NCBI RefSeq assembly: GCF_003790525.1
Contig: NZ_CP033635.1
DNA: 64,000 nt
Strand: one strand, 5' to 3'
Source: Escherichia coli
GTDB lineage: Bacteria > Pseudomonadota > Gammaproteobacteria > Enterobacterales > Enterobacteriaceae
Positions 20,449 through 29,650 of this stretch are shown here, piece after piece. The position numbers were made by a program, and so were the translations under genes. The notes under the pieces were generated by a model. That model did not search any database. It was given only the letters and a program-made list of their open reading frames with translations, and was not told the DNA's origin. Position 1 is the first letter of the stretch, and every line of letters begins with the position of its first letter.

Positions 20449-21765
20449 ATGGCCGTCAATCTTACTGAAACAGCCATCCGAGCATTGAAAGCAAAAAAGA
20501 CATCGTTCTATGTCTGGAGCAACAGCTCTCAACGTGGCACTGGACGACTTGGTGTCAAAGTTCAGCCTTCTGGCAGCAAGATTTTCTATTTCCGCTATTA
20601 CGTGGAAAAAGGGAAAAAAGAAAGATTCATTCAATTGGGTATATGGCCTGAGATGAAACTGGCCACAGCGAATGAACTGACAAAAAAGTATGGTGCCTGG
20701 CTCATTGAAGGAAAGGATCCCCAGGCAGAACTGGAACGACAACAGTTTGCAGAACAGCAGCGGATACAACTCCATCAATCACAGGGCTCATTTGAAGCAT
20801 TGATTCATGGTTATGTTAACAAAATGAAAATTGATAATAAGAGGACATGGCAGGATGTTCTGAAACGCCTTGAAAATGAATGCTATACAGTGATCCCCCG
20901 TGAAACTAAAGCTAAAGATGTGACTTCCGGACAGATTAAACATATCCTGGCCGGGATCATTCAGCGCGGTGCTGTGGTTCACTCTAACCGGATCCGTTCT
21001 TACCTGATGGCTGCATTTAACTATGGACTGAAAGCAGATAACGATCCGATGAACACAAGTGTAGGGATTACTTTTGGGCTGGAGGCAAATCCGGTGTCAG
21101 TGATACCGAAACAGTCATCTGCTGAAAAAGTCGGTGATACCTGGCTGACACTTGAAGAGTTGCGTTTTCTAATGGAACATTTTGCTGAAGCAACCAACGT
21201 TGGATTATTGATGCAACATTTGATCCGATTCTGTATCTATACCGGAGGGCAACGTCCTTTCGAAATGATCGCCAGTCAGTGGTGTGATGTTGATTTTCAA
21301 CAAAAAACGCTGCTGGTGACTGCTGATGTCTCTAAAAATAAACGAGAGCATTTGATACCGTTGACTGAATCAGCATTACAGGAATTATCCTGTGTGCAGG
21401 AGTTAACAAAAGAAAAATCCAGCCCTTACATTTTTCCACTTTCGACTAATGGTAAGCGTCCGGTTCGTACGGACAGTCTGGCTCGCGCTATCATGTATTT
21501 CCGGGCTTTTAATCCTGACTTTAAAATTTTTACAGCACGTGACTTACGTCGGACCTGTAAAACGTTAATGGGAGAAGCTGGGATCAGTAAGGAAATCCGC
21601 GATCGTATTCAAAATCATGCGTTGAACGATGTCAGTTCAAAACATTATGATCGATACGATTATTTGCCAGAAAAACGCAGAGCACTTGAGATCTGGGAGG
21701 ACCGGGTTAATAACTATCAACAGCAAACAGGCAATAATGTTGTCAATCTGTTTGGCAGAAGGTGA
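20449..21765 (+). CDS. P4-type tyrosine integrase
   Basis: 438-aa ORF; C-terminal catalytic region with R...HxxR...Y arrangement (ARDLRRTCKTLM, HALNDVSSKHYDRYDY); directly adjacent to the tRNA fragment. Confidence 0.9.
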   Translation: MAVNLTETAIRALKAKKTSFYVWSNSSQRGTGRLGVKVQPSGSKIFYFRYYVEKGKKERFIQLGIWPEMKLATANELTKKYGAWLIEGKDPQAELERQQFAEQQRIQLHQSQGSFEALIHGYVNKMKIDNKRTWQDVLKRLENECYTVIPRETKAKDVTSGQIKHILAGIIQRGAVVHSNRIRSYLMAAFNYGLKADNDPMNTSVGITFGLEANPVSVIPKQSSAEKVGDTWLTLEELRFLMEHFAEATNVGLLMQHLIRFCIYTGGQRPFEMIASQWCDVDFQQKTLLVTADVSKNKREHLIPLTESALQELSCVQELTKEKSSPYIFPLSTNGKRPVRTDSLARAIMYFRAFNPDFKIFTARDLRRTCKTLMGEAGISKEIRDRIQNHALNDVSSKHYDRYDYLPEKRRALEIWEDRVNNYQQQTGNNVVNLFGRR

Positions 21766-22573: not shown

Positions 22574-24178
22574 TTACTGTTCGACCAGACATTTTCCCCA
22601 TAAAGGTCGTATCGAGTATCTATCTTCGCTATATGGATTTATTTTATTTTTTTCCCTCTGTGCTATCAGCAACGTGTCGATCTCATCCTTAATAATGTGT
22701 TGAACTGCTTGACGGTAACGGTTAAGCGAAGTGTCACTGATATCTTGTGGAAGTTGTAGACTGCCATCTGCCTTGACAAGTTCATTTACACCATCTTTAA
22801 TTCTGCGTCCCTGACCATCAGGTATACCTTCATTCAGATCATAGCCTTTTAGTCCTGCAAGACGAATATTCACGTCAATCTTTTCTGTACGTATCTTTTT
22901 GTTACTTACCAACAGAATTTTATTGGCGTTATACCATTTTTCAAATATTTCCAGTTGTTTCATGATGTTTGTGAAGTTATTCAGTTCGCTCCTGAATTCA
23001 ATAGATTTTCTAATTTTACGCTCTTTTGCATCAATGTTTATTCCTGGATAATTTATTTCCATTTTTAACGGTTCTGTGTATGCCTGTTGCAGGCAATCAG
23101 CAAGATTCATTGCTGCATCCTGCAGGGTATTGGTATAAATCAGTTTCAGAAGTTCATCACGCTGTATAGTGATTTGACAATAGTCTTTTTCCCATGCGGT
23201 GGTGTTTTCAATCGTGTCACTTTCATCGGAAATAATTGTTGTGAACTTCCAGGTGTAACGAATAAAATCATTTCCTTTAAAATATTGCACTAATTTATTT
23301 AACCATTCATATATTTCCAGAGCATAAAGTTTAACGTATCCATCATATATTATCTTTGTTGCATTTTTGTTGGCTAGCGAAAACATTTTGTCCACGAATT
23401 CTGTACGCCCGATTGTTAGCAATTGTTTTCTAAGTTTACTCACATCGTTAGTATCTGGTTTCTCACAATTCCAGGGACTTTTGTATTCATTTTCAAAAGG
23501 AGAAAGCCATTCAGGAATCTCTGTTTCTGAGTGATAGCAGTTGTTAATAGCCAAACCAAGGGTTCTGGCAAGTATCGCTGATTCATCAATTTGATGGTAT
23601 CGGTTCAGTTGTTCCAGTAATTCTTTAGTACATGAGTGCGCAACAGAAAGATCCTGATGGCAATATCCTTGTCGAACCAGAGCGGGAAGTGGTGAGCAAT
23701 GAGCTTTACAATCTGTCAGAATATTGAACAAATCGTTTCTGACGAATTCTTCCATCTCAGGTGTTTTCCAGCCACCACTATTTTGGCCGACAAATTTTGC
23801 TGTTGGTTCCCTGTTCATATCTCCCCAGGTTTTCAGGCTGACGAGTCTGTTATCAAAACCATTGTATAAATGGCACATAACCTGAAAAGCAGCATACAGA
23901 TCTTTAGATAGTGGATTATCGGTCTCACTTATGGAGTAGTTCTCTCTGTTTTTCTCTAAAATACTTTGGAGTTTTGTGTTAGCGCGTAATGCCGAGAGAA
24001 TCCGATGTTGTTCATCAAACCAAGGACGATATTCTGGATCCAGATACAATCTGCGTGCTTTGAAAATGAGTAGAAGCAACTGTTCGGAAACAGCTTCATG
24101 TATGTGGGGAAACGGCATGGAGGTGCCGGATAAAACACGATAGTACGGGTGGTTTGTTTTTACCTTTTTAGTTACCAT
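22574..24178 (-). CDS. Hypothetical 534-aa protein, low GC; candidate phage-defence or abortive-infection protein
   Basis: Long uninterrupted ORF in an AT-rich block between integrase and alpA; no motif I can assign confidently. Confidence 0.5.
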   Translation of the reverse strand: MVTKKVKTNHPYYRVLSGTSMPFPHIHEAVSEQLLLLIFKARRLYLDPEYRPWFDEQHRILSALRANTKLQSILEKNRENYSISETDNPLSKDLYAAFQVMCHLYNGFDNRLVSLKTWGDMNREPTAKFVGQNSGGWKTPEMEEFVRNDLFNILTDCKAHCSPLPALVRQGYCHQDLSVAHSCTKELLEQLNRYHQIDESAILARTLGLAINNCYHSETEIPEWLSPFENEYKSPWNCEKPDTNDVSKLRKQLLTIGRTEFVDKMFSLANKNATKIIYDGYVKLYALEIYEWLNKLVQYFKGNDFIRYTWKFTTIISDESDTIENTTAWEKDYCQITIQRDELLKLIYTNTLQDAAMNLADCLQQAYTEPLKMEINYPGINIDAKERKIRKSIEFRSELNNFTNIMKQLEIFEKWYNANKILLVSNKKIRTEKIDVNIRLAGLKGYDLNEGIPDGQGRRIKDGVNELVKADGSLQLPQDISDTSLNRYRQAVQHIIKDEIDTLLIAQREKNKINPYSEDRYSIRPLWGKCLVEQ

Positions 24179-24957
24179 AATGTTAAATTCTTCCGTCTAT
24201 TGCATAGCTGTTTCCAGTAGAGAAACTTGATACAGTCCTTTGTCAGGACATTGATACAGAGTTAACAGCCTCTACGAAATGGGAATCAGTTATGCAGTGG
24301 CATTATACGATGCTGAATCTAATACGATATCCTTAGCGTTTATTCCTGATTTTTTTACGAGCATTCCCTTTTGTTGCATATTGCTCAGGACGCAAATGAT
24401 TTTACGGTTATAGCCCTCTACAGTCACGTCACTTTCATCTGAAAATATGTATCGTTTTCATTCAATTATTATCTTTTGTCTGCACTTTAGCTTTAGAAAG
24501 TTGGCAAAAATCAACTCCCTCTTACAAGTTCTATTATCGCCAGAAGATAATTTTGTGAACTTCGTCACGTTTTCAAACTAATGTTGTGGGGGCTTTTCTG
24601 GGGAGAATTTTTGGTCACTACCCCTCCTCTTGATATCATAGATTATAACAAGATTTTTTTTGTTTTTGTCTGCATAAAATAACCTACGAATATTGTGATT
24701 TTGATTTTTATTTTGTATACCAAAAAGCATTGTTTAAGTTATTTTTATATTGTGACTTTCTTTGTTGTTATTGTGTTATTAGAAGTCAGTTAATTAAATC
24801 ATTTCTCACAATTTGATTTCTTGGTTGTGCAAATGTATTGTTTTGCTCGTGAGTTGCTGGTGCTGTTCAACAGCATACCACTACAGATAGATGTAGTGAT
24901 TTGAGCAGCTCACATGCATATACAATCTGAAAATCATGAATATATAAGGAGAGCAAT

Positions 24958-25185
24958 ATGTGGAAGCCGTTAAGAGATGAGAACCGTTTATCAATTTTGA
25001 AGATCTATGGATACACCTGTGACAGACTGGTACGAGAAAAGGAACGCCAGAAAATTACGTCTATTTCTCGTTCACAAGCCTGGAAACTGGAACGTGAAGG
25101 AAAATTCCCGCCACGTAAAACTATTGGAAAGAAATCCTGTGGGTGGTTATTAAGTGATCTATTGTGGTGGATTAGTCAGTATTAA
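24958..25185 (+). CDS. alpA: AlpA-family phage regulatory protein / excisionase-like HTH
   Basis: 75-aa ORF; ISRSQAWKLEREGKFPPRKTIGKKSCGWLLSDLLWWI fits the AlpA/Xis-type HTH pattern; preceded by a ~780-bp AT-rich non-coding region. Confidence 0.65.
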   Translation: MWKPLRDENRLSILKIYGYTCDRLVREKERQKITSISRSQAWKLEREGKFPPRKTIGKKSCGWLLSDLLWWISQY

Positions 25186-25247
25186 CCTTATAGTATCAGA
25201 ATAATATATATTTCTATATTTTAATTTTATAATTAAAAAGGAGTTTC

Positions 25248-25994
25248 ATGATGAAACGTGTCTCTTTCTCTCTTGCAGAAACATATGAAGCTGATGTAAT
25301 TAAAAAGTATCAGCATTTAAAAAAATGCTCATTTTCAGCAGCGATTAAAGAGTGTTTAAAGCTAGGGGCTCCTGTTTTAAACAGGATAAATGAAAATATT
25401 GCTGCTATAACTGATATAGAGGATAAGCTACGTCAGTTTTTTAATGAGGAACCATTTGTGCAACGGACAAAGCCTGAAATAACAAAAGGAGAGTTTTTTC
25501 ATAGCATTTATAAATCGCATATCAAATATGAATATGATGTTCTCGATAGAAAGATATTTCCTCATGAAAGCACCAGAAATGCTATGGGAGTTGCAGAGAA
25601 AAAGGGAATTAAAGAGAATGCGACCTTAATGCTGGAATATTATAAAGTTGAGAAGGCAATTTGTATTTACACGAACAGAAAAGTTTCCCATACCCTGAAT
25701 CGTGCAGGAGGGTTTTATAAAACCATTCTGATTAAAACCAGTGTTTTTGGGGATTATTTTTTTGACTTTTGCAATTCAGTTTGCCTGCCGATAGATGAGT
25801 TGATTGAGTATGGTACGAAAGAAACAGTGAGGCGACATCAGATTCGTAGTACAGGATTTTGTACTTTTCATATTCCGATTTTTTATATCAATAATAAGGC
25901 TGTAATAGTGCCTGTTCTGAGAACAGAGGAAGTTTCACAAAGTTCCAGAACAGGTGGAGATGTTATTATTATTAACCCATTTGAAGATGAATGA
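25248..25994 (+). CDS. Hypothetical protein with N-terminal ribbon-helix-helix-like segment
   Basis: 248-aa ORF; N-terminus MKRVSFSLAETYEADVIKKYQHL resembles a CopG/RHH beta-alpha-alpha pattern; remainder unassigned. Confidence 0.4.
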   Translation: MMKRVSFSLAETYEADVIKKYQHLKKCSFSAAIKECLKLGAPVLNRINENIAAITDIEDKLRQFFNEEPFVQRTKPEITKGEFFHSIYKSHIKYEYDVLDRKIFPHESTRNAMGVAEKKGIKENATLMLEYYKVEKAICIYTNRKVSHTLNRAGGFYKTILIKTSVFGDYFFDFCNSVCLPIDELIEYGTKETVRRHQIRSTGFCTFHIPIFYINNKAVIVPVLRTEEVSQSSRTGGDVIIINPFEDE

Positions 25995-26215
25995 TTATGG
26001 CCCGCGTAGATTTATTCATAACCCAGAAATCGTGGTGTAAATGATGAACAGAAACCGCTTTCTGAGGTTAAAGAGAGCAATCATTACCCGGGAGTGGCCA
26101 ACTCTTTTATCGAGTACTTTTCCGATGTATCTGGAGAGCCTCCCTTAGAAAAGAGTAATGCGACTCAGGAAAAAACAGGTTCAATAATTAATTCATGACA
26201 CCAGTTTGAGGCATT

Positions 26216-26776
26216 ATGGCGAGTTTTGCATACATAGACTCTGAAAAATGGTCAAAACTTAATCGCTTAAAATCCATGATTCAGAGATATTTTAAAGAAC
26301 CACTATTGCAGTTAACAGGCGAATTGGGTCGCCCGGATTATACTCTGGCAGACAGAAAACGGTTAGTTCGACTCCTGACGCAGGATATGCAAAGGGGTGA
26401 TATTCTGATTACTAAATCGTTAACTTGTTTTGGTAATACGCCGGAAAAAATACAGGAGGTTTTATCTTTAAGTATCAGACAAGGTATTAATATTTGCTTT
26501 TTTACGTCATCAGAGTTGCCGGATGGTGATGATATTCCTGTGGTACTCACCGGGATGATTTTACCTACAGATATTAGAGGAAAAATTCCCGACATCAGTA
26601 TCCGGAAAATTAAAAGAAAACCAGGAAGGAAAGAAGGGAGTATTCATAGTAAAAATATCAGACAGTTGAAATTGCAGGGGTTCAGTCAGTCACAAACAGC
26701 CAGAAAATTAAGCATCAGTTTATCCACTGTAAAAAGACACTGGGATAAAGGTATTGTTGATCTAACTGCAGAGTAA
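26216..26776 (+). CDS. Serine-recombinase (resolvase/invertase)-derived protein with C-terminal HTH; catalytic motifs degenerate (YagL-like)
   Basis: 186-aa ORF; RGDILITKSLTCFGNT aligns with resolvase GDTLVVxKLDRLGRS but lacks the RVS serine motif and DRLGR arginine; C-terminal QSQTARKLSISLSTVKRHW HTH. Confidence 0.5.
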   Translation: MASFAYIDSEKWSKLNRLKSMIQRYFKEPLLQLTGELGRPDYTLADRKRLVRLLTQDMQRGDILITKSLTCFGNTPEKIQEVLSLSIRQGINICFFTSSELPDGDDIPVVLTGMILPTDIRGKIPDISIRKIKRKPGRKEGSIHSKNIRQLKLQGFSQSQTARKLSISLSTVKRHWDKGIVDLTAE

Positions 26777-26970
26777 CATTTTATAGTCCTTGTAGCTATT
26801 GGCAATGGAGTTATAAATACATGTGCGTTGGATAGGTAATATATATTATATCTGTGATGTATAGTATATGTGTAATGATGGATATGATGTACTAATAGAG
26901 CTAATGGTATTCTGATACCAAATAATTAGTTGTGTGTAGATCATAACTCTGTTTAATGTTTTAGAACGTT

Positions 26971-27011
26971 CTAATGTAACTGTGTAACATCATCCTGTTC
27001 TCTAATGTAAC
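26971..27011. repeat. Direct repeats ctaatgtaac (x2, 31 bp apart) upstream of the Gp2-like gene
   Basis: ctaatgtaac at 26971-26980 and 27002-27011, with a related tgtgtaac between them. Confidence 0.35.
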
Positions 27012-27157
27012 AATAGGCAGTAGCGTTTTTCTTAATTGACGCCCAGAGGGTTATATATCCCTCTGGGAACTACTGATACGAATATTAATATCTGCTTCTG
27101 TTGTGTATTGGGTAGGTTAACTATTAGCTTATCTCTGAAAGCAAAAGGAATATTAAC

Positions 27158-27772
27158 ATGATTACGATTGAAACTCTTTACGGTGAATGTCATGAGGCTC
27201 ACGGGTTAAAAATAAGAAACCAGGTGAATAACCTCTTCCAGAAACATCCCAGAATAACGGCAATACGGGTGGATCTCCATTATCCTCCCGTGATTGACAA
27301 CGGGGATACCATTACCTGTTTTCCTAACCTGAGTCCCGGAGAGATATCTCGTTTCCGTAACTCGCTGAATGCGAAAATTAATGCAGATCAACACCGTAAA
27401 AAACAACAAGGCAAACGCACCTACGCAACGTCGGTTTGTATTATCTGGGCGAAAGAATATACGCAGTCCTTTAAATGTCATTATCACGTCTGCCTTTTTT
27501 TTAACAAAGACGCCTATTACCACCTGGGAGACTATGAGCGCTCTGACACCCTGAGAGGGTTAATTACCGGAGCCTGGTACAGTGCCTTAGGGTTAGAACT
27601 GGAAGATCACCAGGGACTAGTTCATTTCCCTGCTAATGGACGTTACATCCTGGATATTAACGATCCTGATTTCCCTGAGCAATATCAGCGCTTATTGGCA
27701 CGTCTGGATTATCTGACGAAGCTCGACACTAAAGCATCAGGCCAGCGTAACTTTGGCTACAGCGGTTTTTGA
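27158..27772 (+). CDS. Inovirus Gp2-like / YagK-YfjJ family protein with HUH motif
   Basis: 204-aa ORF; HYHVCLFF (HUH-like) and conserved HPRITAIRVDLHYP block typical of the YagK/YfjJ prophage family. Confidence 0.5.
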   Translation: MITIETLYGECHEAHGLKIRNQVNNLFQKHPRITAIRVDLHYPPVIDNGDTITCFPNLSPGEISRFRNSLNAKINADQHRKKQQGKRTYATSVCIIWAKEYTQSFKCHYHVCLFFNKDAYYHLGDYERSDTLRGLITGAWYSALGLELEDHQGLVHFPANGRYILDINDPDFPEQYQRLLARLDYLTKLDTKASGQRNFGYSGF

Positions 27773-27799
27773 CCTATTGTAACTGTAAGGTGATTTATT

Positions 27800-28366
27800 A
27801 TGTATACAGAATCAAACGTTAAGCTTTCCTGTAACGCCCTCTGGCAAAAGTATGTCCTTGCAACTCTGTATCGGGCTGCAGCTACACATCCTAAAATTAA
27901 ATTATTACAATTTAAATTAATACCTTGCCCAGGTATGAACAAGGCAATTCCCTCTCTGATGGCTGATTTTACTGGTGAACTGCATAGACTAATTTCTGAA
28001 TATTTGCAGTGCAAGCGACGTAAAGATAAATCTGTTGAGCCCGCCCCTTTATATTATCTCTGGAGTAGGGAAGCTGTGGCTAACGATACCACTCCTTATC
28101 TTATGGTACTGCTACTTAATAACGATGTCTGGTGTAAGAGTCGTGAGGTGGTGGCTCTCAGAAATCTGATTGAGCAGGCGTGGGGAAAAGTATTGGACGA
28201 AGATAACTCCATTACACATCAGGTTGTGTATCCTGAAGTGCTGTCGTTGGTATTTGATGCAGCTAACACATACAACGCTGAGCCTGGTGTACTGGAACAG
28301 ACGGCCCAGGCTTACATTGAATCGCATGGTGCCATTGAACGTCATCTTGGGTGTAGTGACTTTTAA
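27800..28366 (+). CDS. Paralogue of the upstream Gp2-like protein (HUH motif degenerate)
   Basis: 188-aa ORF; N-terminus HPKIKLLQFKLIPCP parallels HPRITAIRVDLHYPP of the neighbour; the HYHV position reads PYLMV. Confidence 0.4.
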   Translation: MYTESNVKLSCNALWQKYVLATLYRAAATHPKIKLLQFKLIPCPGMNKAIPSLMADFTGELHRLISEYLQCKRRKDKSVEPAPLYYLWSREAVANDTTPYLMVLLLNNDVWCKSREVVALRNLIEQAWGKVLDEDNSITHQVVYPEVLSLVFDAANTYNAEPGVLEQTAQAYIESHGAIERHLGCSDF

Positions 28367-28440
28367 CGACGTCAGGTGATGCATAAGGGCCTTTCGCTGA
28401 GAGGCCCTGTTTACACAATTAAATAAGTCGAACCCGACCA

Positions 28441-28561
28441 GCAATTTTGACGTTGACGGCAGGATTATTGAGGGGCAATCAATGTGTTCTTCGGCAGCGA
28501 TTACGGTAGTGAACGGACCTGCTGTCTGAATGGTATCGATCCGCAAGCGTATCTGCGCCAT
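28441..28561 (+). mobile_element. Short IS66-family transposase (TnpC C-terminal) remnant, truncated by IS2
   Basis: Translates to ...SERTCCLNGIDPQAYLR, resembling the conserved LNGxDPxAYL motif near the C-terminus of IS66 TnpC; abuts the IS2 end at 28562. Confidence 0.35.
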
Positions 28562-29650
28562 TGGATTTGCCCCTATATTTCCAGACACCTGTTATCACTT
28601 AACCCATTACTGGCCCGCTGCCGTAGATATTCCCGTGGCGAGCGATAACCCAGTGCACTATGCGGATGCCATTCGTTATAATGCTCGAACGCCTCTGCAA
28701 GGTTCTTTGCTGCCGTTAACCCGTCTGGTTTGGGCATGATACTGATGTAATCACGCTTTATCGTTTTCACGAAGCTCTCTGCTATGCCGTTACTCTCCGG
28801 ACTCCGCACCGCCGTGTTCTTCGGTTCAAGTCCCAGCATCCGGGCGAACTGGCGTGTTTCATTAGCCCGGTAGCATGAACCATTATCCGTCAGCCACTCC
28901 ACTGGAGATGTCGGAAGCTCGCTGCCGAAGCGGCGTTCCACCGCTCCCAGCATGACGTCCTGTACTGTTTCACTGTCGAAGCCGCCCGTAGTGACCGCCC
29001 AGTGCAGTGCCTCACGGTCACAGCAGTCCAGCGCGAACGTGACCCCCAGTTTTTCTCCGTTATCACAGCGGAACTCGAACCCGTCAGAGCACCATCGTTG
29101 ATTGCTTTCTTTCACGGCCACTTTGCCAGTATGTGCCCGTTTCGATGGCGGTACAGCGGTTTTTCGCTCAAGCAACAGCGCATTCTGGCGCATGATCCGG
29201 TAAACACGTTTGGCATTGATAGCAGGCATACCATCAAGTTCGGCCTGTCTGCGAAGCAGCGCCCATACCCGACGATAACCATACGTGGGCAGCTCTCCGA
29301 TAACATGGTGTATACGGAGAAGCACATCCGTATCATCTGAGTGACGGCTGCGGCGACCATCTTTCCAGTCATCGGTTCGTCTGAGAATGACGTGCAACTG
29401 CGCACGCGACACCCGGAGACAACGGCTGACTAAGCTTACTCCCCATCCCCGGGCAACAAGGGAGACCGTCATTCCCGGTTCAAAGCTCTGCTGAACAATA
29501 GCGATCTTTTCCTGTGTAGTACGCCGTCTGCGTTTCTCCGGCCCTAAGACATCAATCATCTGTTCTCCAATGACTAGTCTAGAAACTAGTATTAAGACTA
29601 TCACTTATTTAAGTGATATTGATTGTCTGGAGATTCAGGGGGCCAGTCTA
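28562..29650 (-). mobile_element. IS2 copy with a ~242-bp internal deletion (1089 bp against ~1331 bp expected)
   Basis: IS2 terminal sequences at both ends (tggatttgcccctatatttccagaca at 28562; complement of tagactggccccctgaatctccagacaa ending at 29650). Confidence 0.75.
28573..29559 (-). CDS. IS2 transposase, in-frame InsC(N-terminal 37 aa)-InsD fusion created by the internal deletion
   Basis: [37 protein letters not shown] (InsC HTH start) runs directly into [20 protein letters not shown]... (InsD) through to ...NRCLEI; DDE region intact. Confidence 0.7.

Follow-up and report, generated by a model that had tools for sequence, protein, structure and literature searches.

We report an analysis of two adjacent genes in a 64,000-nt stretch of the Escherichia coli chromosome (RefSeq assembly GCF_003790525.1, contig NZ_CP033635.1), called the window below, which encode proteins of 204 and 188 aa and lie in the left-hand core of a genomic island that follows nfeF (yqjH). 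The explanation that we favour, and in which we place middling confidence, is that the 204-aa protein is a stand-alone nickase of the HUH-Y1 type, and that the 188-aa protein is its co-transcribed, catalytically dead and selectively maintained paralogue, both belonging to the core that serves excision and maintenance of the island. Neither protein is new to RefSeq: each matches exactly an annotated entry of a known Pfam family, identical copies being named 'inovirus Gp2 family protein' and 'YagK/YfjJ domain-containing protein'. The family is functionally unstudied, and the open-access literature holds no functional study of YagK, YfjJ, DUF3296/PF11726 or of AlpA together with an HUH protein. 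The modest new points of this study are the dead paralogue, the misnomer in the current annotation, and a bipartite upstream element (Box B and Box A) that is accompanied by a leader helix in sister loci.

The 204-aa protein scores 186.8 bits with PF11726 (YagK/YfjJ; gathering cut-off 25.8 bits), a family which a profile search of 1.84 billion representatives resolves into 1006 representative clusters, nearly all single-domain and about 200-250 aa long. In an alignment of 141 family representatives with pairwise identity of at most 50%, residues W97, E100, H108, H110, Y185 and K188 are invariant (141/141), N116 is near-invariant and K192 is kept in 140 of the 141. An earlier note, made from the letters of the window alone, had seen HYHV in the position of the HUH motif of rolling-circle initiators, and the present results bear this out: HYHV occupies residues 108-111, its two histidines are the invariant H108 and H110, they lie on beta-strand 107-116 of an AlphaFold2 model (predicted local distance difference test score 84, predicted template modelling score 0.83), and the E..HUH block aligns to PF23343, phrog_2969 and Microvirus Rep. 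In the same model E100 lies on the adjacent strand 94-101 and is a candidate third metal ligand, as judged from predicted positions at the level of secondary structure, while Y185 of the tyrosine motif Y185-x-x-K188 lies on the C-terminal helix 172-187. The protein therefore has the hallmarks of the HUH superfamily, namely HUH on a strand, Y-x-x-K on a helix and the characteristic alpha/beta fold. The best fold matches of the model are HUH endonucleases: parvovirus NS1, Rep of adeno-associated virus (AAV) and SIRV1 ORF119. PF23343 (REP_ORF2-G2P, 'Replication-associated protein ORF2/G2P') is matched below its threshold (21.6 against 27.8 bits), and such sub-threshold matches recur in 29 of 30 family members; phrog_2969 is described as 'replication initiation protein'. 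A sequence search of solved structures returned nothing relevant, and NCBIfam has no model matching either protein. Homology to HUH endonucleases is thus detectable in the fold matches and the E..HUH alignments, and the placing of the 204-aa protein among their homologues is supported.

As to which HUH proteins are closest, the E-x7-H-U-H block of the family profile aligns to a Microvirus Rep with 25.9 bits (tblastn E 1e-3), and that Rep has YVTKYIAK where the family has Y-L-x-K-x-x-T-K. M13 gpII scores -1.8 bits with the family profile, the 204-aa protein has no Pfam Phage_CRI match, and no inovirus is found among the tblastn matches in 50,697 phage records. Because of the Microvirus Rep alignment and of these three negative results, YagK/YfjJ is, judged by its sequences, an HUH-Y1 family closer to the phiX174-type initiators than to gpII. 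The label 'inovirus Gp2' is a misnomer and misleading in genome annotation: all that the family shares with gpII of the Ff phages (M13/f1/fd) is this label and, in general terms, the notion of an initiator that nicks. Of the two relationships named earlier for comparison, that with YagK/YfjJ holds through PF11726 and that with inovirus gpII falls away. The resemblance to Microviridae or phiX174-type initiators (gpA, VP4) consists of the E-x7-H-U-H block and the YVTKYIAK-like motif; the family differs from them in having one catalytic tyrosine instead of two, a length of about 200 aa without extra domains, and genes that reside on chromosomal islands and large plasmids and not in phages. A phage origin was considered and rejected, since only 2 of the 50,697 phage records match, both weak or unverified: one is an unverified 4.5-kb contig and the other the weak Microvirus Rep match. 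The nuclease and origin-binding domains of parvovirus NS1 and AAV Rep differ from the 204-aa protein in sequence (6-15% identity) and in being fused to a superfamily 3 helicase, whereas the 204-aa protein stands alone and the related islands have a separate DUF3987 protein as neighbour.

The 188-aa protein scores 37.8 bits with PF11726 (cut-off 25.8), aligns to the 204-aa protein by BLASTP with E 6e-6 and 22% identity, and matches the hidden Markov model (HMM) of the family with E 4e-17 over residues 15-148. The two had been described as paralogues sharing an N-terminal block; the paralogy stands, but its extent was understated, because both proteins exceed the PF11726 threshold and the HMM covers residues 15-148, so that the shared region is most of the protein. 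The absence of the HUH motif from the 188-aa protein was read correctly, as PYLMV (residues 99-103) is aligned exactly to HYHV by BLASTP, the family HMM and MAFFT. The protein keeps the W, E, N and A-W of the family, has P-Y-L for H-Y-H, differs at R37 and D39 of motif I, and lacks lysines matching K188 and K192. It thus has neither the HUH nor the Tyr-Lys motif; its predicted structure has the same HUH fold, and it should not be classed as an active HUH enzyme in spite of this shared fold. Over six alleles the ratio of nonsynonymous to synonymous substitution rates (dN/dS) is 0.23-0.27, with PYLMV in all six, showing that the gene is under purifying selection and is not a decaying pseudogene; for the 204-aa gene (gp2) the ratio is 0.05-0.16. 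An independent tandem occurs in a distant lineage (locus L038, 3956-5513, and locus L039), in which an intact member is followed by a 200-aa member without HUH, Tyr and Lys, and this in turn by a DUF3987 gene. The arrangement of one active and one dead member therefore arose or persisted at least twice. The 188-aa paralogue and the degenerate member of L038 are 27% identical over 93 aa.

Both genes are part of a conserved core block of int, alpA, yagM-like, yagL-like and yagK-like genes, and the order in the island matches intF-yagN-ykgV-yagM-yagL-yagK of the K-12 element CP4-6. The alpA gene is the first of the co-oriented core block and is syntenic with gp2 homologues in many genera. On the whole, two types of core module are found, alpA-yagM-yagL-yagK as in the window and alpA-DUF3987(YfjI)-yfjJ, with the order alpA-hyp248-yagL-gp2 in many genera and alpA-DUF3987-gp2 in others. 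A Gp2-like protein is also a core gene of intY/alpA islands of Pseudomonas, defence-carrying islands that a jumbo phage transduces (bioRxiv 10.1101/2024.08.29.610337). Compared with YagK (CP4-6) and YfjJ (CP4-57) of K-12, the 204-aa protein is of the same family (57-59% identical to YagK) and has the same HYH and Y-L-T-K motifs, and yagK shares with it the core order int ... yagM-yagL-yagK and the upstream Box B and Box A. K-12 differs in lacking a degenerate paralogue downstream, and its yagK leader differs in containing a helix (P1, see below) that is absent in the window and in having an unrelated sequence after Box A.

Box B and Box A (Table 1) are separated by a spacer of about 49 nt. Of 46 loci, 34 have a single Box A, invariably upstream of the gene and on the + strand, Aeromonas and Providencia being among them, and the window too has just one copy. 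The bipartite element stands upstream of the family gene in Escherichia, Yersinia, Photorhabdus, Dickeya, Pectobacterium, Providencia, Proteus and Aeromonas (loci L002-L040, L047 and L048). Among 19 IMG/VR matches, 9 lie beside a gp2 homologue or its upstream genes (in L062, beside hyp248/yagL on a sequence that ends shortly past Box A), whereas 10 have no such neighbour and may be due to chance. The final codons of the 186-aa gene overlap Box B in the window; in K-12, Box B lies downstream of the yagL stop codon and is noncoding, therefore its conservation is not owed to the upstream protein. Genomic SELEX (systematic evolution of ligands by exponential enrichment) in K-12 gave a constitutive RpoD promoter, TTTAGA-16-TATAAT, for yagK, and flagged H-NS at the yagL-yagK promoter (PMC3946193). 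Since this mapped promoter coincides with Box A, the core of the promoter that drives the Gp2 gene is probably Box A. The fold of the leader in the window is more stable than that of its shuffles for the sense strand (z -2.95) but not for the antisense strand (z -1.06). Rfam 15 gives no match at E <= 1 in positions 24000-29000 of the window nor in the L023 leader, and only a chance small nucleolar RNA match in the K-12 leader. The idea that Box A forms, across all lineages, the 5' arm of a hairpin like that of a nick-site cruciform was examined and rejected, only L034 being significant and the window giving p = 0.985. Two polymorphisms lie close by: the 16-nt unit ATATATTATATCTGTG at 26844-26859, which follows Box A directly, is present as a tandem duplicate in some E. 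coli (L043 1567-1590, L044 1568-1599), and a 7-nt GTATCTG indel is polymorphic near Box A in E. coli strains.

The spacer between the boxes can pair, in loci of the yagK and L023 types, with the 5' untranslated region 20-55 nt before the start codon, to which it is complementary; we call the resulting long-range helix P1. It is found in L048 (5947-6211, - strand), L002-L008, L018, L019 and L036, and in L022-L040. Its duplex energies range from -23 to -41 kcal/mol, with z from -2.8 to -6.7 in most loci and weaker values in L018 (-2.2) and L036 (-2.1). Within groups the changes are one-sided, between G-C and G-U, and three compensatory double changes separate two groups. P1 could be an undescribed leader RNA, or a single-strand DNA structure, that encloses the promoter. 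The helix was also sought in the leader of the window, where it is absent (z = -0.6).

According to the explanation that we favour, transcription probably begins at the genus-spanning Box A, about 330 nt upstream, which would give a long AT-rich leader holding both repeats and the GC hairpin listed in Table 1. In the 204-aa protein, E100, H108 and H110 would bind a metal ion and Y185 would cut one DNA strand through a covalent 5'-phosphotyrosine intermediate, metal-dependent cleavage of single-stranded DNA (ssDNA) being the chemistry predicted from the conserved residues. The 188-aa reading frame starts 27 nt 3' of the 204-aa frame, preceded by a Shine-Dalgarno sequence AAGGTGA. Its product, presumably made from the same transcript, would be unable to cut because the metal ligands and the motif-III lysines are lost; keeping the HUH (origin-binding-domain) fold, it would most likely be a DNA-binding partner or modulator of the active protein. 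The origin-binding domains of simian virus 40 (SV40) large T and papillomavirus E1 have an HUH-type fold without nuclease residues and bind double-strand origins, and they offer a precedent for such a role, although they are parts of viral helicases and not separate bacterial proteins. The enzyme would most likely nick a specific site on the excised circular island, leading to rolling-circle replication or single-strand transfer; this role is the most economical one in view of the enzyme class, the core position and the DUF3987 neighbour in sister islands. In Enterobacterales, Aeromonas and Pseudomonas alike, the conserved core of integrase islands has YagK/YfjJ-type proteins beside alpA, and if these proteins are working nickases, they would give many integrase islands without recognisable mobility machinery a route of replication or transfer. 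The catalytic residues E100, H108, H110 and Y185, the naturally inactive paralogue and the sharply defined Box B and Box A are starting points for work on this.

Several observations weigh against this explanation. No published experiment shows nicking, replication or transfer by any family member. The 204-aa gene is frameshifted or truncated in some strains, and is therefore dispensable there. The family occurs in 67 of 72,556 plasmid records, these being for the most part large conjugative replicons and not small plasmids of the rolling-circle type. Neither Box A nor the repeats recur elsewhere in the 64-kb window as a possible terminus. The -35 region in the window is poor, although the -10-like TATATT is kept, and a simple consensus scan finds no sigma-70 promoter on the + strand of the window leader. 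Finally, the alignment used to model the 188-aa protein included family members, which biases its predicted structure toward the family fold.

An alternative, which we consider unlikely, is that the pair is a domesticated or vestigial remnant in an island that no longer replicates or moves in this way, the proteins being DNA-binding regulators of island genes or in decay, as in CP4-6 and CP4-57 of K-12. YagK and YfjJ of K-12 indeed reside in cryptic elements, the H-NS signal at the yagL-yagK promoter (PMC3946193) and the broken copies mentioned above would fit such a state, the dead paralogue is an example of a fold retained without catalysis, and no phenotype has been reported in the literature. 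However, the invariance of E100, H108, H110, Y185 and K188 in the 141 representatives indicates that selection maintains catalysis. The dN/dS of 0.05-0.16 for gp2 also speaks against a remnant, as does the constant place of the gene in the int/alpA core of many genera and of demonstrably mobile Pseudomonas islands.

We give rather little credence to a more far-reaching idea, that Box B, Box A and the structured leader form the cis-acting site of the HUH enzyme, either a double-strand origin or a single-strand or RNA switch kept from Escherichia to Aeromonas, and that the active and dead proteins are an asymmetric initiator pair by which integrase/AlpA islands without conjugation or capsid genes would replicate or exit as ssDNA. 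Box A (GTTGGATAGGTAATATA) loosely recalls the CTTG/ATA nick cores of phiX174 and pC194-type origins.

It is quite improbable, in our judgement, that the HUH protein acts on foreign DNA, interfering with ssDNA phages or rolling-circle plasmids or exploiting a helper phage as satellites do, with the dead paralogue as sensor or inhibitor. Such islands do carry defence cargo, with a type I restriction-modification (R-M) system in the window and AbpAB beside yfjJ in K-12 (PMC10732053), the Pseudomonas islands with Gp2-like proteins, which travel by means of a jumbo phage, likewise bear defence systems (bioRxiv 10.1101/2024.08.29.610337), and pairs of an enzyme and a dead paralogue are common in conflict systems. 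Nevertheless, neither the seven neighbouring proteins nor the members of the pair are matched by a PADLOC model, the gene sits in the conserved core by alpA and not in the variable cargo, and Box A and Box B, which are conserved together with it, suggest regulation or a function directed at the island itself.

It remains to discuss the repeats and the hairpin in the leader. Two copies of ctaatgtaac, 31 bp apart and about 150 bp upstream of the 204-aa gene, had been noticed before; their number, spacing and place are right, and the repeat is actually the 11-mer TCTAATGTAAC. An exact repeat of at least 11 nt occurs in 2.7% of dinucleotide shuffles of the 314-nt leader (p = 0.027, post hoc and uncorrected), so that the repeat is modestly unusual. 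The hairpin had not been noted earlier; a natural variant of it, in L043, changes one G-C pair to G-T/G-U. Across the 264 genomes that carry the 380-nt leader, its identity is 94-100% over the full length, and in E. coli variants of 94-99% identity the repeats and the hairpin are invariant, as is nearly all else in the leader. Conservation of the repeats among close relatives is therefore uninformative and was discarded as evidence, the flanks being equally invariant. Beyond E. coli the leader is unalignable. Of 20 other lineages, 18 have leaders whose longest direct repeat is as in shuffles and two are marginal exceptions, while long perfect hairpins are significant in 5 of the 20 and hence not universal. 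Two further observations concern these letters: TGTAAC has 5 of its 11 copies in the 64-kb window within 26975-27830 (0.86 kb; at 26975, 26983, 27006, 27778 and 27830), a clustering noticed post hoc, and TGTAACTGT is present in the leader and again in the 27-nt intergenic gap.

The rolling-circle origin of pMV158 has a nick locus and a bind locus of 11-bp direct repeats, which is the architecture implied by the earlier suggestion of iteron-like sites. RepB of pMV158 is, like the 204-aa protein, a stand-alone HUH protein of about 210 aa; the differences are that the two have no detectable sequence similarity, that two unconserved repeats are present here, and that the family is rare on small plasmids. 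The least probable of the alternatives is that the two copies are iterons bound by the 204-aa initiator and form with the hairpin a pMV158-like origin upstream of a rep gene: repeat (p = 0.027) and hairpin (p = 0.02) are each unlikely in shuffles, TGTAAC clusters nearby, and in rolling-circle plasmids the determinants of origin specificity are expected to differ among lineages with the nick region conserved, but there are two copies only, they lie within a probably transcribed leader, the p-values are post hoc, the repeats occur only in 264 near-identical E. coli loci with flanks as invariant, and 20 other lineages are at shuffle level apart from the two marginal cases. Conservation in related islands, by which the iteron idea was to stand or fall, extends to near-identical E. 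coli islands only, and since the repeats are conserved only where their flanks are and 18 of the 20 lineages show no excess of repeats, the idea fails on this count; the upstream repeats are probably not replication iterons.

The distribution and divergence of the two genes indicate a mosaic history. Homologues of the 188-aa protein are detectable just in E. coli and close relatives. The 188-aa gene is full length in 792 complete E. coli genomes, and the 204-aa gene with its leader is present in about 256. In about 540 E. coli genomes the homology starts at a recombination breakpoint, position 27620, inside the 204-aa gene, leaving a 65-aa C-terminal stub followed by the intact 188-aa gene (L041 and L042, 6776-7567). 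Upstream of the stub there are an Hha-like gene, another YagK-like gene and two DUF7828/zinc-ribbon genes. For the same pairs of islands, synonymous divergence is about 0.09 in the 188-aa gene and 0.02-0.04 in the adjacent 204-aa gene, a difference of two to four times, which points to an exchange of alleles by recombination within the tandem. An extrachromosomal circle seemed to be offered by an 11.7-kb Salmonella 'plasmid' (CP101363.1, L049) with 100% identical genes; it is a linear record with the chromosomal aer-nfeR-nfeF flank, and is therefore a mislabelled chromosomal contig or a contaminant, not an excised circle.

Table 1. Features of the island core and of the leader upstream of the 204-aa gene (positions in the window)
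Feature	Position	Strand	Remarks
Tyrosine integrase	20449..21765	+	Island left end, directly 3' of chromosomal nfeF (yqjH); open reading frame list and RefSeq annotation of the identical locus in strain THO-010
Two genes, function unknown	Between integrase and alpA		Gene order
AlpA-family excisionase/regulator, 75 aa	24958..25185	+	PF05930 E 2.5e-14; phrog_2790 'excisionase and transcriptional regulator'
248-aa protein, function unknown	25248..25994	+	No Pfam match; YagM position of K-12 CP4-6
186-aa YagL-like protein	26216..26776	+	C-terminal resolvase-type helix-turn-helix (HTH), PF02796 HTH_7 E 3.7e-5; weak Resolvase N-terminal match; synteny
Box B CTAACTGCAGAGT (family pattern CTAAYTNNAGAGT)	26762..26774	+	Fixed distance upstream of Box A in 31/37 related loci
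Box A GTTGGATAGGTAATATA (family pattern GTTGGATAGGTAWTATA)	26827..26843	+	-10-like TATATT at 26842-26847
Direct repeat copy 1, TCTAATGTAAC	26970..26980	+	
Direct repeat copy 2, TCTAATGTAAC	27001..27011	+	Ends 147 nt before ATG
Perfect 9-bp GC-rich hairpin, CCCAGAGGG-ttatatat-CCCTCTGGG	27042..27067	+	8-nt AT loop; 91 nt before ATG; p = 0.02 against shuffles, post hoc
204-aa YagK/YfjJ-family protein, HUH-Y1 type	27158..27772	+	E100, H108, H110, Y185, K188
188-aa catalytically degenerate paralogue	27800..28366	+	P99-Y-L101 replaces H-Y-H

Among the other genes of the core (Table 1), homologues of the 248-aa protein hold the same slot in Yersinia, Photorhabdus, Providencia, Aeromonas and others. 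Residues 135-177 of the 186-aa protein match the DNA invertase family phrog_125. The naming of this HTH protein varies, being 'type I phosphoribosyltransferase' in recent output of the Prokaryotic Genome Annotation Pipeline and 'hypothetical' or 'DNA-binding' elsewhere; its K-12 counterpart YagL is labelled 'resolvase-like catalytic domain-containing', and Pfam gives for the 186-aa protein HTH_7 and the weak Resolvase N-terminal alignment alone. On the 3' side of the two genes there is an IS3 element, followed by cargo for sugar utilisation and type I R-M. Right after the stop codon of the 188-aa gene, at 28386-28408, an AGGGCC/GGCCCT hairpin is followed by GTTT; it was not called by the terminator scan, and could be a weak terminator ending the two-gene unit.

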